Shown here: in pieces, positions 7,754 through 51,179 of the stretch
Position numbering within the stretch: the stretch's first letter is position 1
Layout: every line of letters starts with the position of its first letter
DNA from: an uncultured Planctomycetales bacterium
GTDB lineage: Bacteria; Omnitrophota; Gorgyraeia; Zapsychrales; Fredricksoniimonadaceae
Direction of reading: 5' to 3'
Assembly: GCA_964643325.1 (NCBI GenBank)
Contig: CAZXSE010000003.1
Coordinates: forward strand, 13,960 to 77,959
DNA: 64,000 bases
Notes under the pieces: model-generated
The model's input: only the letters and a program-made list of their open reading frames with translations
Database searches by the model: none
Told to the model about the DNA's origin: nothing
Made by a program: the position numbers and the translations under genes

Positions 7754-8793
7754 GTGCGCTCACTCATACGCAGAATGTTCTTATAATACGGCGGACGTAT
7801 GATGCCATACTCAGTCACAATACCCGTGATCAATTCATGGTCCGTTACATCAAACGCGGGATTAAACACCTTCACACCCTTGGGTGCTGTCATCTTGCCT
7901 GCGAAAGACCGCACTTCATCCGCGTCGCGCTCCTCGATAGGAATATCCCACCCGGTCTTCGCCTTCAGGTCAAATGTCGTCTTGGGCGCGACCACATAGA
8001 ACGGGACCTTATGATGCTTTGCCAGAACAGCGAGCATATAAGTGCCGATCTTGTTGGCCGCATCCCCGTTGGCCGCAATGCGGTCAGCGCCCGTGAAAAT
8101 AATATCCACGCCCTTGTTCTTCATCACGCTCGCGGCCATGTTGTCGCAAATGAGCGTCACATCGATCCTGTTCTTTTGCAATTCCCACGCCGTCAGGCGC
8201 GCGCCCTGCAACAGCGGCCGCGTTTCAAGGGCATAGACTTTGAACTTCCTGCCGGCTTCTTTGGCCGCGTACATCACGCCAAGCGCCGTGCCATAATCCG
8301 CGGTCGCAAGGCCGCCCGCATTACACACGGTCATGACCGTCGCGCCGTCTCTTATAAGTTTCGCCCCGTGCTTGCCCATGGCCCGGCACACAGCCCGGTC
8401 CTCCTCGTAGATCGCCAGCGCCTCTGATGTCAGGACCTTCTTAAGCTGCGCGACAGAAAGACGCGGATTATTCTGTGCCAGAAGCCGCATCTGCGTAAGC
8501 GCGTGAAAAAGATTGACCGCCGTCGGACGCGACGCGGCGATATGATCACACACTTTGCCAATGTGACGGATGAGCGCGGCAGTATCCTTGCCCTTGAAGG
8601 ACTGCATTCCTAAAAGAACGCCAAAGGCCGCGGCAATGCCGAGCGCCGGCGCGCCGCGGACTTTCAATGTTCTAATGGCATACCAGAGCGTGTCCACATC
8701 CCGGCAATCCAGATAGACCAATTTTTCGGGAAGCAGGGTCTGGTCAATGATCCGCGCCGAACGGCCGGTCCATGAAATAGTGTCAACAGCCAT
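7750..8793 (-). CDS. mtnA: S-methyl-5-thioribose-1-phosphate isomerase (eIF-2B alpha/beta/delta family)
   Basis: IIDQTLLP...LKVRGAPALGIAAAFG N-terminal pattern and GADRIAANGD motif. Confidence 0.75.
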   Translation of the reverse strand: MAVDTISWTGRSARIIDQTLLPEKLVYLDCRDVDTLWYAIRTLKVRGAPALGIAAAFGVLLGMQSFKGKDTAALIRHIGKVCDHIAASRPTAVNLFHALTQMRLLAQNNPRLSVAQLKKVLTSEALAIYEEDRAVCRAMGKHGAKLIRDGATVMTVCNAGGLATADYGTALGVMYAAKEAGRKFKVYALETRPLLQGARLTAWELQKNRIDVTLICDNMAASVMKNKGVDIIFTGADRIAANGDAANKIGTYMLAVLAKHHKVPFYVVAPKTTFDLKAKTGWDIPIEERDADEVRSFAGKMTAPKGVKVFNPAFDVTDHELITGIVTEYGIIRPPYYKNILRMSERT

Positions 8794-8803
8794 AGCAGTT
8801 ACA

Positions 8804-10312
8804 TTATCCTTTTTCTATCTCGATCCGCGGAAAAAGCGGCGGATGCGTTTCAAGTTTTGTTCCTGCCTTCAACCCGCCCCAGACCAATCCCGTTGCCTGC
8901 GCGCCGAGGATCTCCAGCACCCGTTGTGCTTTTTGCGGCATGACCGCCCGCAACAGGACCGCGCTCAATCGCAATGCTTCTGTCGCGACATAAAGCACGC
9001 GGCCCGCGCCCGCAAGGTCTGTCTTGGCCAGCTTCCACGGCGCCTGGACTTCCATATACTTGTTAACGGCGCGGATCAGGTCCATGATCTCATTGATCGC
9101 TCCGTCCACTTTATACTCTCGCAAAAACTCCTGCACCTTACCGCCCAGCGCGGCCCCGCGGGCCTCGATATCCTTATCCTGCGCCGACAACTCGCCCGGC
9201 GCCGGGACAATGCCGTCAAAATACTTCCCGATCAGGCCCGACACGCGATTGAGCAGATTGCCGAAATCATTCGCCAGGTCGCTGTTATAACGTTTGATGA
9301 AATTCTCCGGCGTGAAATTGCAATCCGCGCCCAGGGTCATTTCCGCCATCAGGTAGTACCGCACCGCGTCCACACCGTGCTGTTCGATCAGGTCCAGCGG
9401 CTTGACCACATTGCCCAGGGACTTTGACATCTTACTGTCCCCGATCAGCCACCAGCCGTGCGCGAAGATCGTCTCGGGCAGCGGCAAGTCCAGCGCGAAC
9501 AGCATGGTCGTCCAGTAAATGCAGTGCGTGGTCAGGATATCCTTCCCGATCAACTGAACCGACGCGGGCCACCAGCGGCGGAACCTCGCCTCATCAACAA
9601 GATACCCGGGCGCTGTGATGTAATTGATCAGCGCGTCGAACCAGACATAAGTGACATAATCGCGATCAAAGGGGATCTCGATGCCCCAATCCAGGCGCGA
9701 CTTCGGACGGGAAATGCAAAGGTCCCCGAGCGGCTGGCGCAGAAAGCCCAGCATTTCATTCTTGCGGTGTTCGGGGCGGATAAGCCCCGGATGGTCGCTG
9801 ATATACTGCAGCAGCCTGTCCTGATACTTGCTCATCCGGAAGAAATAATTCTTCTCCTTGATGGTCTTTACCTCGCGGAACTGGCCCGAGGCCGCTTCCT
9901 TCTCCGTGATGAACCGCTCTTCAGCGACGGAATAAAGGCCTTCGTACTCTTTCTGGTAGATATCGCCCTTGTCATAGACCGCCTGCAAGACCTGCTGAAC
10001 AACCTTCACGTGACGCGCTTCGGTCGTCCGGATAAAATCATCATTGCTGATCTCAAGCGTCTTCCACAAATCACTGAACCGCGGCGCCAGGTCGTCGCAA
10101 TGCGCCTGGGGCGTCATGCCGCGCTTGACGGCGGCCTGCTGGACCTTTTGCCCGTGCTCGTCAAGCCCGGTCAGAAAGAACACATCATCGCCAAGCTCCC
10201 GGTGGAACCGGGACAACACATCCGCCAGGATGGTCGTGTACGCGTGGCCGATATGCGGCGCGTCATTGACGTAATAAATGGGCGTGGTGACGTAAAACTT
10301 ATTTTTTGTCAT
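8804..10312 (-). CDS. metG: methionine--tRNA ligase
   Basis: Class I aaRS motifs HIGHAYT and KMSKSLGN. N-terminus FYVTTPIYYVNDAPHIGH. Confidence 0.95.
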   Translation of the reverse strand: MTKNKFYVTTPIYYVNDAPHIGHAYTTILADVLSRFHRELGDDVFFLTGLDEHGQKVQQAAVKRGMTPQAHCDDLAPRFSDLWKTLEISNDDFIRTTEARHVKVVQQVLQAVYDKGDIYQKEYEGLYSVAEERFITEKEAASGQFREVKTIKEKNYFFRMSKYQDRLLQYISDHPGLIRPEHRKNEMLGFLRQPLGDLCISRPKSRLDWGIEIPFDRDYVTYVWFDALINYITAPGYLVDEARFRRWWPASVQLIGKDILTTHCIYWTTMLFALDLPLPETIFAHGWWLIGDSKMSKSLGNVVKPLDLIEQHGVDAVRYYLMAEMTLGADCNFTPENFIKRYNSDLANDFGNLLNRVSGLIGKYFDGIVPAPGELSAQDKDIEARGAALGGKVQEFLREYKVDGAINEIMDLIRAVNKYMEVQAPWKLAKTDLAGAGRVLYVATEALRLSAVLLRAVMPQKAQRVLEILGAQATGLVWGGLKAGTKLETHPPLFPRIEIEKG

Positions 10313-11138
10313 CTTTTCCTGTGTCTTTTACCGCGTCTTTTGCCGCATCCGGATGCGGGATATGCATCTTGACGATCTTACCGTCCCCGACGTCCACCTG
10401 AACAAAGCGCTTGAGGATGTCCAGGTTAATGACCTTACCCCGGCCCTCGGGCGTTTCGATCTTTCCGCCCATCTTCGGCAGCCCCTTGTTGAGCTCCTTG
10501 TACACATTGAACTCGTAAGCCATGCAGCACTTAATGCGGCCGCACACGCCGGAGATCTTCGATGGATTCAGCGGCAGCGCCTGCTCTTTTGCCATCTTGA
10601 TGGAAAGCTGGCTGAAATCCTTGATGAACGAGGCGCAGCATAAATGCTGGCCGCACACGCCGTAGCCCTCGATCATCTTGGCGCGGTCGCGCACGCCGAT
10701 CTGCTTGAGCTCAATGCGGACGCGAAAGACCTTCGCAAGCTCCTTGATCAGGTCGCGAAAATCCACACGCCCCTCGGCCGTGAAATAAAAAATAACCTTC
10801 GACCCGTCGAACGAATGCTCGCTACTGAGCATGTTCATGTCGAGCTTAAGTTCGTTGATCTTGCTGATGCACACATGCAACGCGTCCTTGGACTTGGTGC
10901 GGTTGTGTTCGATCTGGCGCATGTCCTGCTCCGTCGCCTGGCGCAAAACCTTGCCGGAAGCAAAGAACTTCTTCTCGGACTCGTTCTTGGGGATGATGAG
11001 CGATGTCACGCGCGCGAATTCCGTTCCGCGCTCGACCTCCACGATCACGCGATCGCCGCGGCGGCATGGCACATCCCGGTCATCCACATAAATGGCCGGA
11101 CGGTATTCGCCGAGCCGGACCTGTATCAGTTTTCCCAT
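10299..11138 (-). CDS. ricT: PSP1 domain protein (RicT/YaaT-like)
   Basis: PSP1 C-terminal pattern with Cys cluster GVCGQHLCCASF...GVCGRIKCCMAYE. It sits directly after holB, as in Bacillus. Confidence 0.8.
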   Translation of the reverse strand: MGKLIQVRLGEYRPAIYVDDRDVPCRRGDRVIVEVERGTEFARVTSLIIPKNESEKKFFASGKVLRQATEQDMRQIEHNRTKSKDALHVCISKINELKLDMNMLSSEHSFDGSKVIFYFTAEGRVDFRDLIKELAKVFRVRIELKQIGVRDRAKMIEGYGVCGQHLCCASFIKDFSQLSIKMAKEQALPLNPSKISGVCGRIKCCMAYEFNVYKELNKGLPKMGGKIETPEGRGKVINLDILKRFVQVDVGDGKIVKMHIPHPDAAKDAVKDTGKDDKK

Positions 11139-12719: not shown

Positions 12720-14117
12720 TTATCCCCGCCGCCAGCTCTGGCCGGCTTTTCCGTCCTCGACGATAATACCGCGCGCTTTCAGCGCGTCGCGCAAAGCATC
12801 CGAACGCGCCCAGTCCTTCTCCTTGCGCGCCTGTGCCCGTTCATTCAACAAGGCTTCATCATCTGCCGTAAGCCCGGCCGGCGCATCTTCAAGCGTAAGC
12901 CCAAAGATCCCCTCGAGGACCTCGCGCAGGAATTTCCCGGCCAGATGAACGCTGCCTTCAAAATAATCATCCTGTTTTCCATCATCAATGAAGCGGTTCA
13001 CCGCGCTCACAAGGTCAAAGATATGCCCCAGCGCCAGCGCCGTATTGAAATCCGCGTCGAGCGCCGCAATGATCTTTTCCTTGGCATCCAGAAGGAACTC
13101 GACCTCATCCATGGCCACCGCGAGCTTTGGCTGCGGCACGGCCTTGATCTTGGCAACAAGGTTCCTGAAGCGCGTAATGCCCTTTTCCATGTCGGCCAGC
13201 TTTTCTTCAGTGTAATCGATAGAGCTGGCATAATGCGTCGATAAAAAGAACAGCTTCATGGCGCCGGTCGAATGCTTTTTCAGCGCGTCCTGCACGGTAA
13301 TGAAATTGCCGAGCGACTTGGCCATCTTTTGCCCGCCGATGGTCAAGAGCCCGTGATGGATCCATGTCTTCGCAAAAACCTTGCCGGTCAGCGCTTCGGC
13401 CTGCGCGATCTCGTTCTCGTGATGCGGAAAAATAAGGTCGCGCCCGCCGGCATGGATATCAAGCGTCTCCGTACCCAGATGCTTGATGCTCATGCAGGAA
13501 CATTCAATGTGCCAGCCCGGCCGGCCATTACCCCACGGGCTAGGCCACGACGGCTCACCCGGCTTGGCCTTCTTCCACAAGGCAAAATCCAGAGGATCCT
13601 CTTTCTTCTCGTCCTTATCGATGCGCACGCCCTCGCGCATCTTATCCACGCTCTGCCCGGAAAGTTTCCCATAATCCGGGAACGAGCGCACGCGAAAATA
13701 AACATCGCCATCCACGGCATACGCGTGGGTTTTCGCGATCAACCCCTCGATATGGGCGATCATCAGCGGAATATTCTCCGTCGCGCGCGGCTCAATGTCC
13801 GCGCGGCCGATGCCCATGTCCGCCATGTCCTTGTGGTAAAGGTCAATATTCTCGCTGACAACAGCCTCAAAGGTCTTGCCCGTCTGCTGGGCCTTCGCAA
13901 TGATCTTGTCGTCCACATCCGTGATGTTGCGCACGAACTTCACGTCATAACCGCGATAGCGCAGATATTTCACCAGGCTGTCAAACGTATAGAGCGAACG
14001 GGCATGGCCGATATGACACTTGTCATACACCGTCACCCCGCACGAATACATGTTGATCCTCGCCGGAGCGTTCGGCAATGCCTGCCGGTCTTTTGTAAGT
14101 GAATTGTATAATTCCAT
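12720..14117 (-). CDS. cysS: cysteine--tRNA ligase
   Basis: HIGHARS and KMAKSLGN class I motifs. SD AGAGGG lies upstream of the ATG at 14117. Confidence 0.95.
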   Translation of the reverse strand: MELYNSLTKDRQALPNAPARINMYSCGVTVYDKCHIGHARSLYTFDSLVKYLRYRGYDVKFVRNITDVDDKIIAKAQQTGKTFEAVVSENIDLYHKDMADMGIGRADIEPRATENIPLMIAHIEGLIAKTHAYAVDGDVYFRVRSFPDYGKLSGQSVDKMREGVRIDKDEKKEDPLDFALWKKAKPGEPSWPSPWGNGRPGWHIECSCMSIKHLGTETLDIHAGGRDLIFPHHENEIAQAEALTGKVFAKTWIHHGLLTIGGQKMAKSLGNFITVQDALKKHSTGAMKLFFLSTHYASSIDYTEEKLADMEKGITRFRNLVAKIKAVPQPKLAVAMDEVEFLLDAKEKIIAALDADFNTALALGHIFDLVSAVNRFIDDGKQDDYFEGSVHLAGKFLREVLEGIFGLTLEDAPAGLTADDEALLNERAQARKEKDWARSDALRDALKARGIIVEDGKAGQSWRRG

Positions 14118-14141
14118 GAAACCCTCTTCTTACTGATTAAC

Positions 14142-14157
14142 AGCGCGCGTATCAGCC
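14142..14157. repeat. 16-nt exact direct repeat AGCGCGCGTATCAGCC (partner at 14370-14385)
   Basis: The identical 16-mer was read at both positions. Related GCGCGC-N-(T)CAG(Y)C(C) motifs start at 14178, 14203 and 14319, and one lies inverted at 14476-14492. Confidence 0.9.
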
Positions 14158-14217
14158 TTGGCCATATGTCCCAAGTAGCGCGCCTTTATCAGTCTCGCTC
14201 ACGCGCGCCTTTCCATT

Positions 14218-14312
14218 GGCCTGCGGTGTGTTTCGCCGCTCAACAGAGAGCGTCTTTTTCCGGAATAACGGTAAGCCGCTCTCTAATTCGCGGCTTAAAC
14301 ACACCGCAAGCC
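14218..14312. repeat. long nested-hairpin repeat, copy A (inverted relative to copies B and C)
   Basis: Outer stem GGCCTGCGGTGTGTTT/AAACACACCGCAAGCC, a 5-bp stem GCCGC/GCGGC and an inner stem AGAGAGCG/CGCTCTCT. The reverse complement aligns with copy C through GCCGCGAATTAGAGA...TCTCTG.TGAGCGGCG. Confidence 0.8.
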
Positions 14313-14369
14313 ACTGCGGCGCGCTATCCATGATCAGTGCCGGCCGACAATGAAAATCCTCTTCTGCAA

Positions 14370-14492
14370 AGCGCGCGTATCAGCCGAAGGCATGTTTTTG
14401 CAGCGCATTCAGAGACCGGCTTACAATAATACCTTTAGAAAAAGACGGTCTCTGCGCGCTAAAAAACATGCCGAGGCTGATAGAAAGCGCGC
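14370..14492. repeat. long nested-hairpin repeat, copy B (abuts cysE stop codon)
   Basis: Nested stems are GCGCGC.TATCAGCC/GGCTGATA.GCGCGC, GGCATGTTTTT/AAAAACATGCC, AGCGC/GCGCT and AGAGACCG/CGGTCTCT. The apical loop is GCTTACAATAATACCTTTAGAAAAAGA. Confidence 0.8.
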
Positions 14493-15157
14493 TACTTAAA
14501 CTTTTTCTCAAGCTCTTCGAGTCGCCTGGTCAACGCATCAATGTCCTGCGTCACCGGATCAAGGATCTGCGCGTGCGCCAGCTTCTGGTCGATCTTTTCC
14601 CCGTCCTGCCTGGTCACATGCCCGGGCACGCCGACGACCGTCGTGTTCGCGGGAACGCTCTTAAGAACGACCGCGTTCGCGCCGATATAAGAATTACTGC
14701 CGATCTCGATATTGCCCAGGATCTTCGCGCCCGCGCCGACAACGATATTATCGCCCAGCGTCGGATGACGCTTGCCGGTCTCTTTTCCCGTACCGCCAAG
14801 GGTCACGCCTTGATATAACAATACATTATCCCCGACGATCGCGGTCTCGCCGATCACCACCCCCATGCCATGGTCGATAAAAAGTCCCTTGCCAATGGTC
14901 GCGCCCGGATGGATCTCGATGCCGGTCAGAAAGCGCGCCAGCTGCGAAAGGGCGCGCGGGATGAGCGGCAGCTTCCATCTCCAAAGTCCGTGCGCCATGC
15001 GATGCAGGACGATCGCGTGAAGCCCGGAATACAGGAACAGGACCTCAAATGTATTCGTCGCCGCCGGGTCGCGCTCCTGCACACCCTTGACCTCCTGATG
15101 AAAAAACACCAGCATGATCGCGAAGAATATGATCAGTACCCATAAAATGAACATCAT
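14492..15157 (-). CDS. cysE: serine O-acetyltransferase
   Basis: [20 protein letters not shown] motif and hexapeptide repeats ([22 protein letters not shown]...). A strong SD (TAAGGAGAG) precedes the ATG at 15157, giving a 14-aa hydrophobic N-terminal extension. Confidence 0.9.
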
Positions 15158-15681: not shown

Positions 15682-16347
15682 TTATTTCAAAAATACCCGC
15701 GCCGTCAAAAGATCCTCCGGCGTTGTGATCTTGATATTCGTGTATGCCCCCATAAAAACATTCACCTTCGCACCCATCCGCTCGACGAGCGCCGCGTCAT
15801 CGCTCGCGCCCTGCGTGTCCTCCCGGTAGGCGCGCTCCAGCAAGGGCCGCGAAAAAACCTGCGGCGTCTGCACCTCCCACAAGAGGGACCGGTCAAATGT
15901 CTCGGTCACTGTCATGGCTGCGGGATCCACCGCCTTGATCGTGGGCTTGACCGGCACAGCCGCGATCGCAGCCCCTGTCGCCTTGACCGCCTCAAGCCCG
16001 GCCGTAATGATCTCCGGTGTGACCAGGGGCCTCACTCCGTCGTGAACAATGACCACCCTCGCCTCCGGCGGCAAAAGCGCCAGGGCATTACGCACGGAAC
16101 CGGTGCGCGTATCAGCGCCCGCGACAACGGCTTTCACTTTCGTAAACCCGCGCGCGATCTTTTCATGATCGCCCTGCCAATCACGATGCACCACAAGAAC
16201 AATGCCGTCAACCGCCGGGCATTCCTGAAAAACACCCAGCGTGCGCGCGATCACAGGCGCCCCGCCAAGCTCAGCCAGTGGCTTCGGCATTGCCCCGCCA
16301 AAACGCGCGCCCGTGCCCGCCGCCGGGATAATGGCCCAGACGCTCAC
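15682..16347 (-). CDS. ispD: 2-C-methyl-D-erythritol 4-phosphate cytidylyltransferase
   Basis: IIPAAGTGARFG N-terminal motif, 221 aa, adjacent to ispF. Confidence 0.9.
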   Translation of the reverse strand: MSVWAIIPAAGTGARFGGAMPKPLAELGGAPVIARTLGVFQECPAVDGIVLVVHRDWQGDHEKIARGFTKVKAVVAGADTRTGSVRNALALLPPEARVVIVHDGVRPLVTPEIITAGLEAVKATGAAIAAVPVKPTIKAVDPAAMTVTETFDRSLLWEVQTPQVFSRPLLERAYREDTQGASDDAALVERMGAKVNVFMGAYTNIKITTPEDLLTARVFLK

Positions 16348-19537: not shown

Positions 19538-20311
19538 TTATCTCACATGCCCGAACTTCATGCTCTCGTCCTCGGTGATGGGGCCGAGCGCTTCACCGTT
19601 AATGAACTGCCTTACGACCGGATGACGCGAGGCGCGGATCTCGTCCGGCGTCCCGTCCGCGATCACCTGTCCGTGATAGAACATCGCGATCGTATCCGCG
19701 ATCTTGTACGCCGCGTTCATGTCATGCATGACCACGATGGACGTGACTTTGAGCCGGTCCCGCATCTGGATGATCAGCTGCTGGATCGCGTCGGAAGTGA
19801 TCGGATCGACCTCGCTGGTCGGCTCATCGTAAAGGATGATCCGCGGCTCCATGCACAGCACGCGCGCCAGGCTCACCCGCTTGCGCATGCCTCCCGACAG
19901 TTCCGAGGGCATCAACTCCTCGATGCCGCTCAATCCAACCAAAGAAAGCGCGTGCCCCACGCGTTCTTTCTTTTGCGCTTCCGGCATCCCGGTGAACTCG
20001 TCCAGCACGAACCCGACATTCTCGCCGACGTCCAGCGAATCAAAAAGCGCCCCTCCCTGGAACACCAGGCCGATATTGCGGCGCACGCGATCCAGTTGGG
20101 CGCCGGCCAGCTGCGTGATCTCGGCGCCGTCGATGGCAATGGACCCCGAGTCGGGCCTCAACAGCCCGATGATGTGCTTCAAGAGCACGCTCTTGCCCGC
20201 ACCCGAGCGGCCGATGATCACCTTGGTCTCGCCGGCGCGCACCTGCAGGTTCAGCCCGTTAAGGACCTGGACCTTATTGAATGTTTTATAAAGGTTGCGT
20301 ATCTCTATCAT
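19538..20311 (-). CDS. mlaF: ABC transporter ATP-binding protein MlaF
   Basis: ORF trimmed to MIEIRNLYKTF. Walker A GRSGAGKS and signature LSGGMRKRVSLAR are present. The start overlaps the mlaE stop by 1 nt. Confidence 0.85.
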   Translation of the reverse strand: MIEIRNLYKTFNKVQVLNGLNLQVRAGETKVIIGRSGAGKSVLLKHIIGLLRPDSGSIAIDGAEITQLAGAQLDRVRRNIGLVFQGGALFDSLDVGENVGFVLDEFTGMPEAQKKERVGHALSLVGLSGIEELMPSELSGGMRKRVSLARVLCMEPRIILYDEPTSEVDPITSDAIQQLIIQMRDRLKVTSIVVMHDMNAAYKIADTIAMFYHGQVIADGTPDEIRASRHPVVRQFINGEALGPITEDESMKFGHVR

Positions 20312-21099
20312 CAGGCGTTGAACAAAAAGTAAAAGATGAATGTAAAGAAACAGTCGAACATGATGATCAGGATGAACGCGCGCACCACCGACATGGTCGT
20401 GGCGCGCCCGACACCGTCGGCCACGCCCTTGACATGAAGGCCCTCGAAGCACCCGACCGTCGCGATGATCATGCCGAAGAACATGGTCTTGACCAGGCCC
20501 GTCACAACGTCCTTGACCGCGAGCGAGTCAATGACCATGTTCCAGTACATGTGCGCGTCGATCGACAGCTTGAAATTGCAGATCACGAACCCGCCGAAAA
20601 TACCGACCAGGACGGCAAAAACAGTAAGGACCGGCAGCATGACGGCCAGGGCCAGAAAACGCGGCACCGCCAGATAGCGGACAGGGTCCGTGGCAAAAGC
20701 CCGCAGCGCATCCACCTGCTCGGTCACGACCATGGAGCCGATCTCCGCCGTGATGCCCGCCCCGACACGGCCGGCCACGATCAATGCCGTCAATACCGGC
20801 CCGAGCTCGCGCGTCAAGGAGACCGCGATCACGTTCGGGATATAGATCTCCGCCGAAAGCTGCAGCATCAGGTACGCCATCTGAAGCGCGATGATCATGC
20901 CCACAAACAGCGCCACCAAAGACGCGATCAGGAAACTTCCCGGCCCGACGCGCTTTGCCTGCACCAGGAACCGGTACGGAGAGAACGGCGGTGTCAGCGC
21001 CGCAATCATGATCTGCGCCCCCAACAGCGTCAGCTCTCCGACGTAACGGAAACCGTCCCGCGCCGCGCCCTTTGATCGTTCAAGCCATTCACGCCCCAT
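20311..21099 (-). CDS. mlaE: ABC transporter permease MlaE
   Basis: 262-aa multi-TM protein with an MlaE-like pattern (RELGPVLTALIVAGRVGAGITAEIGSM.VTEQ.DAL). Confidence 0.85.
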   Translation of the reverse strand: MGREWLERSKGAARDGFRYVGELTLLGAQIMIAALTPPFSPYRFLVQAKRVGPGSFLIASLVALFVGMIIALQMAYLMLQLSAEIYIPNVIAVSLTRELGPVLTALIVAGRVGAGITAEIGSMVVTEQVDALRAFATDPVRYLAVPRFLALAVMLPVLTVFAVLVGIFGGFVICNFKLSIDAHMYWNMVIDSLAVKDVVTGLVKTMFFGMIIATVGCFEGLHVKGVADGVGRATTMSVVRAFILIIMFDCFFTFIFYFLFNA

Positions 21100-44017: not shown

Positions 44018-44173
44018 GTTCAAATATATTAGGGAAAAGGGGGCGGACAAAATATCCAAAAAGACCTGGATTCTGACTAAGATGCGGGAGCCATCCCACT
44101 GCAGGATAGGTATCTCTATATTACTATTACTTGGCCCTTGAAAGAATCCTTTCAAGGGCAGCCATTTGGTCTC

Positions 44174-44218: not shown

Positions 44219-44231
44219 TCTATGGAACAAA

Positions 44232-44305
44232 TGGCTGCCCGGCTAGGATTCGAACCTAGAAACTCAGAACCAAAATCTGATGTGTTACCATTACACTACC
44301 GGGCA
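44232..44305 (-). tRNA. tRNA-Gln (anticodon TTG), CCA encoded
   Basis: Manual cloverleaf. The 7-bp acceptor is TGCCCGG/CCGGGCA (U1:A72, discriminator G). The D stem is GTGT/ACAC. The anticodon stem TCAGA/TCTGA carries loop TTTTGGT. The T arm is CTAGG-TTCGAAT-CCTAG. Total length 74 nt. Confidence 0.95.
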
Positions 44306-49262: not shown

Positions 49263-49991
49263 CTATTTCATCATGATAACAGAGATCATGCGGCCCGAAT
49301 GGTCCGCGTCGCGACGGAATGAATGGAAGCGCGCGGCATCCTTGAACGAACACAGGCCGCTGTCAAAAATGTTCGCGGGCAAAACCCCGGCCGCCGTCAG
49401 CTGGCGCAGATTGGCCGCGAAAATATCAAAACGCAATCCCGATGGCGTCTCCTGCGTCTCGAGGGGAAAATATTCCTTGAACTCCTCCCCGACCGCACAG
49501 CTGTCGCGGCGGATGCACGGGCCGATGGCCGCTCGGATATTTGTGGGATCGACCTTGTAAGAGGCGCGCATGACATCGACCGTCTTGTGCGCGATATCAA
49601 GCTTGGTGCTTTTCCACCCGGCGTGAACGGCCGCGATCACGCGGCGCACCGGATCATACAAAAGCGCGGGCAGGCAATCCGCCGTGCGTATCGCGATGGG
49701 CAGTCCGATAACATCAGTAACAACAGCATCCGCCTCGAACGCGCCGGATCTTTCCATATCCTTACGCGTCACCTGCCAGACTTTATCGCCGTGGACCTGT
49801 TTCGGGACAATGATGCCCTGCTCTGCATTAATGCCGCGCGCCTGAAGATACAACTTTTGCGCGGCTGTCAGGACATAAAACGGGCTACCAGGCTCGCCTG
49901 TCATGAAATCAAGCGACCTGTCGCTGGTGAATGCTGTTACGCCGAGGAATTTTGAATAGTTGGTATCTGTCATAGAAACGTTCCGTGGCAT
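49263..49991 (-). CDS. pgeF: purine nucleoside phosphorylase / laccase-domain protein PgeF (YfiH)
   Basis: QVHGDKV, TADCLP and AVHAGWK motifs. The start is uncertain (ATG 49991 or 49973), and 49991 overlaps the outer stem of hairpin copy C. Confidence 0.8.
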   Translation of the reverse strand: MPRNVSMTDTNYSKFLGVTAFTSDRSLDFMTGEPGSPFYVLTAAQKLYLQARGINAEQGIIVPKQVHGDKVWQVTRKDMERSGAFEADAVVTDVIGLPIAIRTADCLPALLYDPVRRVIAAVHAGWKSTKLDIAHKTVDVMRASYKVDPTNIRAAIGPCIRRDSCAVGEEFKEYFPLETQETPSGLRFDIFAANLRQLTAAGVLPANIFDSGLCSFKDAARFHSFRRDADHSGRMISVIMMK

Positions 49992-50109
49992 GTTGCGATA
50001 GCGGTTTGGTGTATGCCATGGCCGCGAATTAGAGACCGGCTACAATAATCCTTGGGAAAAGCCGGTCTCTGCTGAGCGGCGGGCATACACCAAACGCAAG
50101 CAACATGCC
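49987..50109. repeat. long nested-hairpin repeat, copy C
   Basis: Nested stems are GGCATGTTGC/GCAACATGCC, GTTTGGTGTATGCC/GGCATACACCAAAC, GCCGC/GCGGC and AGAGACCGGC/GCCGGTCTCT. The apical loop is TACAATAATCCTTGGGAAAA. Confidence 0.8.
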
Positions 50110-50123
50110 GTCATGGTTGCTAT

Positions 50124-51179
50124 TTATTCCGCTTCCGGCAAACTTCCCTGCTTGAATTCCTCGATATGCCGGATCTTGGTGTCAATGTTCTTGAAGCTCT
50201 TATCGCGGATGTCCCTGTAATTGGCGTCGAGATCGGCAATGAGCTTCTCCATGTCCGCGAAACGTTCCTTGAAAGTGGCGTAATGCTTCACAAAGATCCC
50301 GATATCCTGAATGATCTTGCGCAGGTCGCGCTCAAAACGGAAATTCTCATGCGCCTGACGGATGACCGCGAGCGTAGCATATAACGTGAAGGGCGAACAC
50401 AGGACAACTTTCTGTTTGAGTGCCTCGTCCATGAACTCGGGCGCAACCTCATGGATATAGCCGAAGACCTGTTCGTTGGGAATGAACAACATCACGAAAT
50501 CCAGCGTATTCTCCGACGGATTAATGTAATCACGCGTTTGCAGTTCCTTGACCCGGGCGCGCGCATTCTTAATGAACTCTTTGGAGCACGCCTCGCGTTC
50601 CATATCAGAAGGCGCGTTGACCATCTTGAGATAATTATCCAACGGGAACTTCACATCCATATTAACGATCCGCTCATCCGGCAAAAGGAACGTGATGTCC
50701 GGCTTGGTCGTGGATGATGCCAACTGGGTCTGCTTGCGGTAATTAACATTCTCCAGAAGGCCGGCATGGCGGATGATATCCTCGGCCATGCGCTCGCCCC
50801 ACTGGCCGCGCAATTTCACATTGCCCAGGACATTGGTCAGATTTCCCGTCGTATCCTGAAGCTTGAGCGTGGCCTGCGCGGCATTGGCCAATTCCTTCTC
50901 AAGCGCGCCGAACTTCTGCGCCCTATCCGTTTCCCAGGAGCGCAGCAGCTGTTCATAATCCTTAAGGCGGGCCTCAAGAGCGCGCACAGTCCCTTCCAAC
51001 GCCTGCCGTCGCGATTCCGCGTCCACCGCGTCCTTCGTGCGCTCATCGCGGGCCGCGCGCAACAGCGCTTCAACCCCGGAATTCTGCCGCAGAACAATAA
51101 CAGCAAGAATGGCCGTGACAAAGCCAAGGACCGCGATAACAGCGAACATCATAGGATCATCTCCTGTCGCCAGCGGCAA
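50124..51179 (-). CDS. rmuC: DNA recombination protein RmuC
   Basis: N-terminal TM, then a coiled coil and a C-terminal RmuC nuclease-like domain (KPDITFLLPDERIVNMDVKFPL...LFIPNEQVF). An alternative start is at 51152. Confidence 0.8.
   Translation of the reverse strand: MPLATGDDPMMFAVIAVLGFVTAILAVIVLRQNSGVEALLRAARDERTKDAVDAESRRQALEGTVRALEARLKDYEQLLRSWETDRAQKFGALEKELANAAQATLKLQDTTGNLTNVLGNVKLRGQWGERMAEDIIRHAGLLENVNYRKQTQLASSTTKPDITFLLPDERIVNMDVKFPLDNYLKMVNAPSDMEREACSKEFIKNARARVKELQTRDYINPSENTLDFVMLFIPNEQVFGYIHEVAPEFMDEALKQKVVLCSPFTLYATLAVIRQAHENFRFERDLRKIIQDIGIFVKHYATFKERFADMEKLIADLDANYRDIRDKSFKNIDTKIRHIEEFKQGSLPEAE

Follow-up and report, generated by a model that had tools for sequence, protein, structure and literature searches.

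The stretch of DNA analysed here, 64,000 nucleotides (nt) long and referred to as the window, carries a run of minus-strand genes in which cysE and cysS are separated by an intergenic spacer with a mosaic of long hairpins. An earlier note on this DNA had observed that the gap between these two genes is exceptional, which was confirmed, and the other sequence features that it described also proved to be present. Between about 4.5 and 27 kb, all other minus-strand gaps are at most 22 nt or are overlaps, a figure that holds only when the MlaE open reading frame (ORF) at 20311–21099 is counted. The CysS protein of the window is a 100% match to a protein named cysteinyl-tRNA synthetase, and its nearest homologues, 75–85% identical, are named Candidatus Omnitrophica or Omnitrophota. 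The gene order ClpC-Mla-RadA-PIN-ispD-ispF-cysE-cysS-tmk-holB is kept in relatives, and the cysE-syntenic genes of L006–L011 carry PF00132 (L-numbered names denote contigs that came from scans or were fetched around CysS and Icd homologues). The names of the CysS homologues and the kept synteny therefore identify the window organism as one of the Omnitrophota, which are uncultured, small-celled bacteria with compact genomes. The whole spacer folds at −185 kcal/mol (z = −7.8) on the minus strand and at −171 kcal/mol (z = −10.3) on the plus strand, and cysS keeps an intact, separate ribosome-binding site downstream of the hairpin structures. We explain the spacer best as a hot spot for insertion, in which copies of a non-coding hairpin repeat specific to the Omnitrophota lineage have gathered.

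Two full copies of this repeat, A and B, lie in the spacer, and a third, copy C, which the first reading had missed, lies 36 kb from it (Table 1). The earlier note had correctly described A and B as palindromes in opposite orientation, but the lengths that it gave were somewhat too short, because the GCGCGC outer stems belong to the hairpins. Their shared core (a 5-bp helix, a GAATT/ATTC internal loop, an AGAGASCG/CGSTCTCT helix and a TTAC...GAAAA loop) was confirmed, as was the placement of copy B at the end of cysE, where its last stem base abuts or overlaps the stop codon (CTA at 14492–14494 on the plus strand). The pattern AGAGASCG-N(10–40)-CGSTCTCT has three matches in the window versus none in 100 shuffles, the core of copy C matching at 50031–50070. 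We built a covariance model (R1) from five copies and refer to the better-scoring strand as canonical. An unfiltered search of the 64-kb window with this type of model returned copies A, B and C only; R1 scored copy A at 124.6 bits on the minus strand versus 43 bits on the plus strand, copy B at 97.5 bits on the plus strand versus 32.5 bits on the minus strand, and copy C at 99.7 bits. A repeat finder delimited inverted arms in copy A (14214–14233 with 14297–14316, and 14235–14256 with 14273–14294) and in copy B (14389–14399 with 14462–14472, and 14410–14422 with 14442–14454). The minimum free energies are −78.4 kcal/mol for A (z = −10.3), −66.7 kcal/mol for B (z = −9.8) and −76 kcal/mol for C (z = −10.2), and in shuffle controls for pattern and fold, 0 of 100–200 equalled the observed result. 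Copy C nearly fills the 132-nt gap between rmuC (stop at 50124) and a yfiH/pgeF-like gene (start at 49991 or 49973), the Pfam families of these neighbours being RmuC and Cu-oxidase_4.

Table 1 Features of the cysE-cysS spacer, copies of the hairpin repeat and an adjoining conserved hairpin
Feature	Sequence	Coordinates	Strand	Basis or remark
cysE-cysS intergenic spacer, whole mosaic	Window	14118–14491	none	374 nt; ORF map and fold
cysE, serine acetyltransferase with hexapeptide repeats, upstream gene	Window	14492–15157	−	ORF
cysS, cysteine-tRNA ligase, downstream gene	Window	12720–14117	−	Own ribosome-binding site at 14119–14130
Copy A, full hairpin P1–P6	Window	14203–14324	−	Canonical strand is the gene (sense) strand; covariance model and fold
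Copy B, full hairpin	Window	14370–14492	+	Canonical strand antisense to cysE and cysS; covariance model and fold
Copy C, full element	Window	49987–50109	+	Canonical strand antisense to both neighbours; pattern match, covariance model and fold
Solo arm GGCTGATACGCGCGCT, P2′-P1′ 3′ arm of a B-type element	Window	14142–14157	−	Exact 16-mer repeat of 14370–14385
Second solo arm GACTGATAAAGGCGCGCT, decayed B-type 3′ arm	Window	14177–14194	−	Read from sequence; inverted-repeat partner of 14484–14497
Direct repeat, copy 1: start codon of cysS with its ribosome-binding site AGAAGAGGG, a linker and the 16-mer arm	Window	14115–14157		Local alignment with 14349–14385
Direct repeat, copy 2: decayed counterpart of this ribosome-binding site and start (AGAAGAGGATTTTCATT), a linker and the 16-mer arm	Window	14349–14385		Local alignment
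Repeat copy upstream of an ogt-like gene	L002			Metagenome pattern scan
Repeat copy between icd and lipB	L003			Metagenome pattern scan
Repeat copy in the trm112-aroQ spacer	L013	16115–16248		Covariance-model search of fetched contig
Repeat copy in the trm112-aroQ spacer, same site as L013	L019	9691–9887		Covariance-model search
Repeat copy in the icd-lipB spacer, same site as L003	L020	2357–2558		Covariance-model search
Repeat copy in the cysE-cysS spacer, same site as the window	L021	7825–7963		Covariance-model search
Terminator-like hairpin after icd	L003	1445–1480		
Terminator-like hairpin after icd	L020	2325–2360		
Terminator-like hairpin after icd	L019	3680–3715		
Terminator-like hairpin after icd	L012	11110–11145		

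The full repeat unit is one long imperfect palindrome of 125–135 nt, with a helix order that is identical in all copies (fold z of −8.8 to −10.3). The outer part comprises P1 (6–11 bp) and P2 (5–9 bp), followed by a 3 × 3 internal loop of the GAA/GCA type; the middle part comprises P3 (8–13 bp), a small loop, P4 (GCCGC/GCGGC) and the internal loop GAATT/GYTGA; and the inner part comprises P5 (AGAGNNCG/CGNNCTCT), a short P6 (CUU/AAG) and an apical loop with a variable middle between a conserved GCTTAC and GAAAAAGA. Among the seven copies aligned, the sequences of P1–P3 drift with complementarity kept, and P4, P5 and the loop flanks are nearly invariant, which gives a conserved centre of about 60 nt (GCCGC-GAATT-AGAGNNCGGCTTAC...GAAAAAGACGNNCTCT-GYTGA-GCGGC). 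P5 is invariant save for two positions that change together, from AC/GT to GG/CC or AG/CT. A BsaI-type site (GAGACC/GGTCTC) was considered as the cause of P5 conservation and rejected, given that L002 and L013 carry AGAGGGCG by compensated change. The terminal inverted pair in P1 is GGCATTGCC/GGCAATGCC in L002, L003 and L013, GGCATGTTGC/GCAACATGCC in copy C and GCGCGC/GCGCGC in A, B and L021; terminal inverted repeats are present in each type, yet the terminal sequence is not constant across the family.

Covariation accompanies this fold. In a model-guided alignment of the seven copies, 91.8% of pair cells hold standard pairs, versus 35–48% when the 3′ partner is slid by 1–3 columns; changes occur on both sides in 11 of 30 pairs, and none of 500 column shuffles reaches the observed values. 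A five-copy alignment gives a similar result. The structure of the repeat appears to be maintained by selection or a repair-like process. The covariance model scores 97–137 bits on the canonical strand versus 32–62 bits on the other, and the canonical strand folds better than its complement in all seven copies, by 1–11 kcal/mol, which is a modest sign that one particular strand folds. The repeat contains no conserved small ORF, and frames are interrupted in several copies; a small coding ORF was rejected because conservation tracks base pairs and not codons. The translation of an antisense frame that is always open (AAQQRPSFS..SRSL) has no match among 5.8 billion proteins. Open frames of 53–62 amino acids do run through the repeats in places (window 14152–14331 on the minus strand and 14166–14333 on the plus strand; L005 2–163; L012 11167–11355), and some of those over these spacers are called as genes in public annotations. 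We regard these frames as spurious, because their likeness tracks the nucleotide repeat and because they are broken in other copies. An exact-protein look-up for the window contig identified L005 as a 1.6-kb duplicate contig.

Fragments of the repeat lie beside the full copies in the spacer. The GCGCGC..TCAGCC motifs listed in the earlier note are present but do not form a separate class: they are P1 and P2 arms that belong to the hairpins, together with two solo arms. The exact 16-mer reported at 14142 and 14370, AGCGCGCGTATCAGCC, is likewise present, and with up to three mismatches it has six matches in the window versus 1.7 expected. At 14142 it forms a solo arm that adjoins the cysS ribosome-binding site and matches the 3′ arm of the L021 element in position, and at 14370 it is the 5′ arm of copy B. 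Both occurrences belong to a direct repeat, the upstream copy of which is decayed (AGAAGAGGATTTTCATT versus the functional AGAAGAGGGTTTCATG of cysS), such that a second, decayed version of the ribosome-binding site and start codon of cysS lies at 14349–14365, between copies B and A. From these direct repeats it follows that a local duplication of about 40 nt accompanied the build-up of the cluster, and the second direct-repeat copy marks such a duplication around copy A.

Further copies beyond the locus, which the earlier note had proposed to look for, were found not only in copy C but also in six other Omnitrophota contigs (L002, L003, L013, L019, L020 and L021), where they span four spacers, cysE-cysS included, in both orientations. 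A core-pattern scan of metagenomes yielded two true relatives (L002 and L003) and one chance match (L004), and this strict pattern probably missed diverged copies. The names of Icd homologues place L003 in the Omnitrophota as well. The same scan of GTDB species genomes gave only a chance match, in Phaeospirillum (L001); the window genome is therefore not among the species representatives. Viral contigs scanned with three patterns had no match, and the fetched related loci, about 20 kb each, contain no element beyond the sites listed in Table 1.

Comparison of the spacers of close relatives revealed empty orthologous sites at three spacers. At the cysE-cysS junction, the window carries the element, as does L021 with one copy in 159 nt, and L009–L011 (16 nt), L006 (102 nt) and L007 (704 nt of unrelated material) are without it; CysS identity to the window is 85% in L021, L006 and L007 and 82% in L009–L011. 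The icd-lipB spacer is filled in L003 and L020 and is without the element in L013, L016, L017 and L019 (77–116 nt), and the trm112-aroQ spacer is filled in L013 and L019 and is without the element in L016 (26 nt) and in L017 and L018 (266 nt, with a different hairpin repeat). Such a distribution excludes a conserved leader of cysS and demonstrates that the element was gained or lost at several sites. In L007 the cysE-cysS spacer (9297–10000) holds a 153-amino-acid ORF with a Laminin_G_3 domain, flanked by a pair of other, near-perfect hairpins, which makes this junction a hot spot at which different cargo inserts. In L016, the 'empty' spacer of 26 nt between trm112 and aroQ (8404–8431, GAAGCAATGTCGATAATGGAGG) resembles the 3′ end of the element with its right flank in L013 and L019 (GAAGGCAATGTTTAATTAAATGGAG), and could be a footprint of loss and not a never-occupied site. 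The icd-lipB spacers of L003, L012, L019 and L020 also contain a conserved terminator-like hairpin after icd (GCCCTGYTGG-N13-CARCAGGGC), followed by a T-run in L012. The L003 and L020 elements begin exactly at the 3′ foot of this hairpin and share the GGGC of its stem.

The canonical strand is sense to the flanking genes in copies A, L013, L019 and L021 and antisense in B, C, L003 and L020. Immediately behind the cysE stop, copy B and the L021 copy sit at one and the same position; they agree in their P1 (GCGCGC) and P2 (ATCAGCC) arms, and each is the closest relative of the other, yet they are inverted with respect to each other. This inversion may reflect a flip by recombination in the element's own inverted arms, or two insertions into the same palindromic GCGCGC target. 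In A, B and L021, the palindrome GCGCGC that stands at each end could belong to the element itself or could result from duplication of a palindromic target.

To what extent is the repeat constrained? The L003 and L020 elements are identical at 122 of 135 positions (90.4%, with a 62-nt insertion left out), versus 52.5% at the third codon positions of icd, and copy B is 74% identical to the L021 copy, versus 53–56% at the third codon positions of cysS and cysE. Synonymous sites are near saturation between the compared species (52–56% third-position identity). At the level of sequence, these comparisons show constraint on the repeat above the neutral level, and among the substitutions between L003 and L020 there are compensated pairs, in P1 (C-G to T-A) and in P2. 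The three window copies, A, B and C, are only 53–61% identical to one another, and their nearest kin are in other species (L021 and L003 for B, L002 for A). The divergence among the three copies and their cross-species kinship therefore indicate old sub-lineages under constraint and not a recent burst.

Two copies have acquired an insertion of their own. A 62-nt module of two small hairpins lies within the apical loop in L020 (2440–2501, minus strand; GTAGCCGCGACTTAGTGAGCGAAGCGAAGTTGCGGC + GCCGATCTCAAACAGATCGGC) and in L019 (9737–9802, beginning TAACCGCGG), at the same insertion point (after CGGC and before TTAC) in two loci and species. The sister copies in L003 and L013 are without it, and neither the window nor the viral contigs searched contain it. 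After the insertion, P5 of the host element is mutated in L020 and half deleted in L019. The module looks like a second mini-element that targets the first.

Other repeats share these spacers. A second, unrelated long hairpin repeat lies in the trm112-aroQ spacer of L017 (about 10800–11010) and also in L018, with the arms cccgacaagggg..gcctctgtcttaaatt / aatttaagacagaggc..cttgtcggg. Its 3′ arm is directly left of the family element in L002 (600–660) and its 5′ arm is left of the family element in L013 (16065–16115); L012 ends inside this repeat (16065–16119), at the trm112-aroQ site, which suggests an assembly break at the repeat. Two unrelated spacers, in L019 (9437–9690, trm112-aroQ) and L006 (8940–9226, ispF-cysE), have blocks such as gggtcctgccgc, catctgattgatggt and gcgtcacccgc in common; this may represent a third repeat, or else a small non-coding element, some 250 nt long, that is conserved. 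Elsewhere in the window, an inverted repeat (44156–44171 and 44225–44240; 16 nt, 94%) overlaps the 3′ end of the only tRNA gene, at 44235–44305 on the minus strand.

Dispersal, occurrence in both orientations, filled and empty sites, fragments with duplicated flanks, and the absence of a coding frame together match a known bacterial class, the intergenic palindromic repeats with the behaviour of non-autonomous mobile DNA (ERIC, REPIN, Correia and BIME/RIME). We consider it reasonably probable, and infer from this pattern, that the repeat is a mobile hairpin element moved in trans: a non-autonomous unit that an enzyme encoded at another place in the genome would copy, from time to time, into new intergenic sites. 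This enzyme would recognize the central hairpin, which is conserved and asymmetric, and would most likely do so in single-stranded DNA. Orientation independence combined with conserved strand asymmetry points to recognition at the DNA level and against a transcript function in the host operon. At cysE-cysS, the starting state was probably a single B-type copy, as still found in L021; an inversion or re-insertion of this copy may have come next, then the duplication of about 40 nt that took in the B arm and the cysS ribosome-binding site, and finally the arrival of the second, diverged copy A. For the host, the consequence would be a very stable structure in the cysE-cysS transcript. The fragments, the local duplication and the mini-element nested in the loop (L019 and L020) are features typical of repeat clusters. 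The suggestion in the earlier note of an insertion of the REPIN type, or of a miniature inverted-repeat transposable element (MITE), is supported by the unrelated sites, both orientations and empty orthologous sites, although strict membership of either class does not follow from them.

Several observations weigh against mobility in trans. Neither the 40 Pfam-scanned ORFs of the window (64 kb) nor the genes called across some 150 kb of related loci include a transposase, RAYT, integrase or reverse transcriptase; for RAYT (Y1/HUH, PF01797) the loci covered were L006–L021. A blastn search for a parent autonomous insertion sequence (IS) had no match in plasmids, phages or E. coli genomes, and nothing was found in viral contigs. 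The nine junction pairs inspected contain no unambiguous target-site duplication and no common flanking direct repeat. The most conserved part of the repeat is its centre and not the termini that a MITE- or REPIN-type transposase would bind. An identity of 53–61% means no recent burst, and a typical MITE or REPIN population is far more uniform; the copy count rests on 64 kb of this genome. Conservation far above the synonymous level at shared sites could equally indicate a host function.

One such function, which we think rather unlikely, is that of an mRNA or DNA structure recruited by the host, serving in either orientation as a barrier to 3′–5′ exonucleases, a site for RNase III/E or a partial insulator, and setting the expression of cysE versus cysS. 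For certain REP, ERIC and Correia elements, expression roles of this kind have been shown. Each of the nine copies is located in a short spacer, in most cases between co-directional genes; the hairpin forms on either strand (−60 to −78 kcal/mol); the L003/L020 element abuts the conserved terminator-like hairpin after icd; and the conservation above the neutral level and the separate ribosome-binding site that cysS retains downstream of the structures fit such a role. However, a purely structural role leaves the conserved sequences of the asymmetric loop and internal loops unexplained, close relatives have the same junctions with spacers of 16–26 nt, on the gene strand the hairpins have no U-tract behind them, and the effect would be added on top of dispersal without explaining it. 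So stable an RNA hairpin may nonetheless have a general effect on the polycistronic transcript.

Also unlikely, in our view, is a multi-copy structured small RNA family or RNA module, transcribed from the canonical strand, in which the central hairpin and loop would be an RNA motif (for example, a protein-binding platform) stabilized by the arms. Covariation with conserved internal loops, G-U-compatible changes, the greater stability of the canonical strand in every copy and conservation at shared loci far above that of synonymous sites fit this proposal, as does the age and divergence of the copies within one genome, which resemble paralogous RNA genes in this respect. Yet roughly half the copies lie antisense to the operon in which they sit, no signal resembling a promoter or a terminator turned up near A or B, and the element is lost without trace at orthologous sites of sister species. 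Fragments occur, another element has inserted in the loop with subsequent decay of P5, and no Rfam family matches; compensatory change is also common in the hairpins of REPINs, which are DNA elements (PMC3116915). The host structure and the small RNA would each account for the strong conservation, but both leave the dispersal, the fragments and the orientation data unexplained.

A further reading, which we hold to be doubtful, is that of a long-lived element under purifying selection and not a decaying transposon relic. Its asymmetric central hairpin would then be the recognition site of a novel Omnitrophota system, either a new hairpin-directed enzyme that mobilizes single-stranded DNA by working on the conserved centre instead of on conserved ends, or host protein or RNA machinery, and the 62-nt mini-element that targets the apical loop would be a parasite of a parasite.

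A cysteine-specific, cis-regulatory cysS leader (T-box-like, another riboswitch or an attenuator), one of the roles raised in the earlier note, is highly improbable. The very stable structure does lie directly upstream of an aminoacyl-tRNA synthetase gene, but in species whose CysS is 82–85% identical the spacer measures 16 or 102 nt and does not contain the element, copies of the element adjoin rmuC/yfiH, icd/lipB, trm112/aroQ and an ogt-like gene, and the orientation of B versus L021 is reversed. No Rfam match to such a leader appeared even at E values up to 10, at which the spacer gave only generic hairpins of the miRNA-precursor type (15–27 bits versus thresholds of 70–108, each scoring less than a third of its gathering value); the whole window searched with Rfam 15 at the gathering threshold gave only a tRNA. 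The earlier idea of a classical intrinsic terminator also failed, in that a scan of 13900–14700 found no hairpin with a U-tract on the transcribed (minus) strand. No T-run follows A or B on that strand, and no sigma-70-like promoter was found in the spacer. Integron attC sites have R″/R′ core sites (RYYYAAC ... GTTRRRY) at their ends, a variable centre and an arrangement in arrays next to intI. An attC site was rejected, as the repeat ends in GGCATTGCC or GCGCGC, has a conserved centre and forms no cassette arrays, and no integrase was found among the scanned window ORFs. A purely local duplication or palindrome without a wider family, or a chance structure, is refuted by the copies 36 kb away and in at least six contigs from other species and by shuffle controls in which 0 of 100–200 equalled the observed result, even though the direct repeat of about 40 nt and the solo arms show that local duplication happened.

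The cysE-cysS locus itself is ordinary, an inserted repeat cluster and not a new regulator of cysteine metabolism. The conserved core and the covariance model provide a defined, searchable model for an Omnitrophota repeat family, with which insertion hot spots could be marked, breaks in metagenome-assembled genomes explained (such as that of L012 at trm112-aroQ), mis-annotated ORFs of 53–62 amino acids avoided and the enzyme that moves or binds the repeat sought. The part that could repay follow-up is the strong constraint (90% versus 52% at synonymous sites) with structure-preserving change; the conserved-centre architecture and the loop-targeting mini-element also merit attention.

The earlier note could match the repeat to no RNA family or IS end; in agreement with this, searches of Rfam, plasmids, phages and E. 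coli genomes gave no match to a known RNA family or to an IS or MITE end, and a literature search found no description of intergenic repeats in Omnitrophota. Correia or NEMIS elements of Neisseria are intergenic inverted-repeat elements of 100–155 nt that are co-transcribed, form hairpins processed by RNase III and have an AT-rich, protein-binding centre. The Omnitrophota repeat resembles them as an inverted-repeat hairpin element of the 100–155-nt class located between genes, and differs in that Correia elements have 26-bp terminal inverted repeats, a TA duplication and hundreds of similar copies, and are without a conserved GC-rich central helix. ERIC sequences are imperfect palindromes of about 125 nt that are intergenic, usually inside transcription units, in either orientation and at low to moderate copy number. 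Their best-conserved part is a central inverted repeat, and they have internal indel variants and presence/absence differences between related species. These features of ERIC, also called IRU, were reportedly described by Hulton in 1991, by Sharples and Lloyd in 1990 and by Wilson and Sharp in 2006. Our repeat has the same intergenic palindrome of about 125 nt, either orientation, conserved centre, presence/absence pattern and variants with internal insertions. Unlike ERIC, it has no sequence match in a distant-mode blastn search against 5,426 complete E. coli genomes, in which ERIC copies occur, belongs to a different phylum, shows no TA target duplication and has strongly covarying arms, whereas ERIC copies are fairly uniform. 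ERIC is regarded as a MITE, and Correia elements have been named as MITEs (PMC3116915).

REPINs are defined by two highly conserved, inverted REP ends with a less conserved spacer between them; a single-stranded DNA hairpin intermediate, no target-site duplication and long vertical persistence are presumed or described for them, as are clusters with repeated flanks (PMC3116915). The Omnitrophota repeat shares with REPINs the long extragenic hairpins, the compensatory changes and the clusters with repeated flanks. In REPINs, however, the ends (REP 16-mers) are near-invariant and the middle is variable, which is the reverse of what we find, and REPINs occur as hundreds of near-identical copies, compared with three per 64 kb here that are 53–61% alike.

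BIMEs and RIMEs are mosaic clusters of palindromic units in alternating orientation, with partial units, in one spacer, and are said to have been described in this form by Gilson in 1991 and Osteras in 1995; in E. coli, the binding partners of BIMEs are IHF, gyrase and Pol I. Their units, which are either REP-type palindromes of only about 35 nt or other sequences, show no sequence similarity to the Omnitrophota repeat in the blastn search of E. coli genomes, but the layout of the cysE-cysS spacer is exactly such a mosaic. The best reading of the repeat is a new family of REPIN/ERIC/MITE-like, non-autonomous hairpin repeats.

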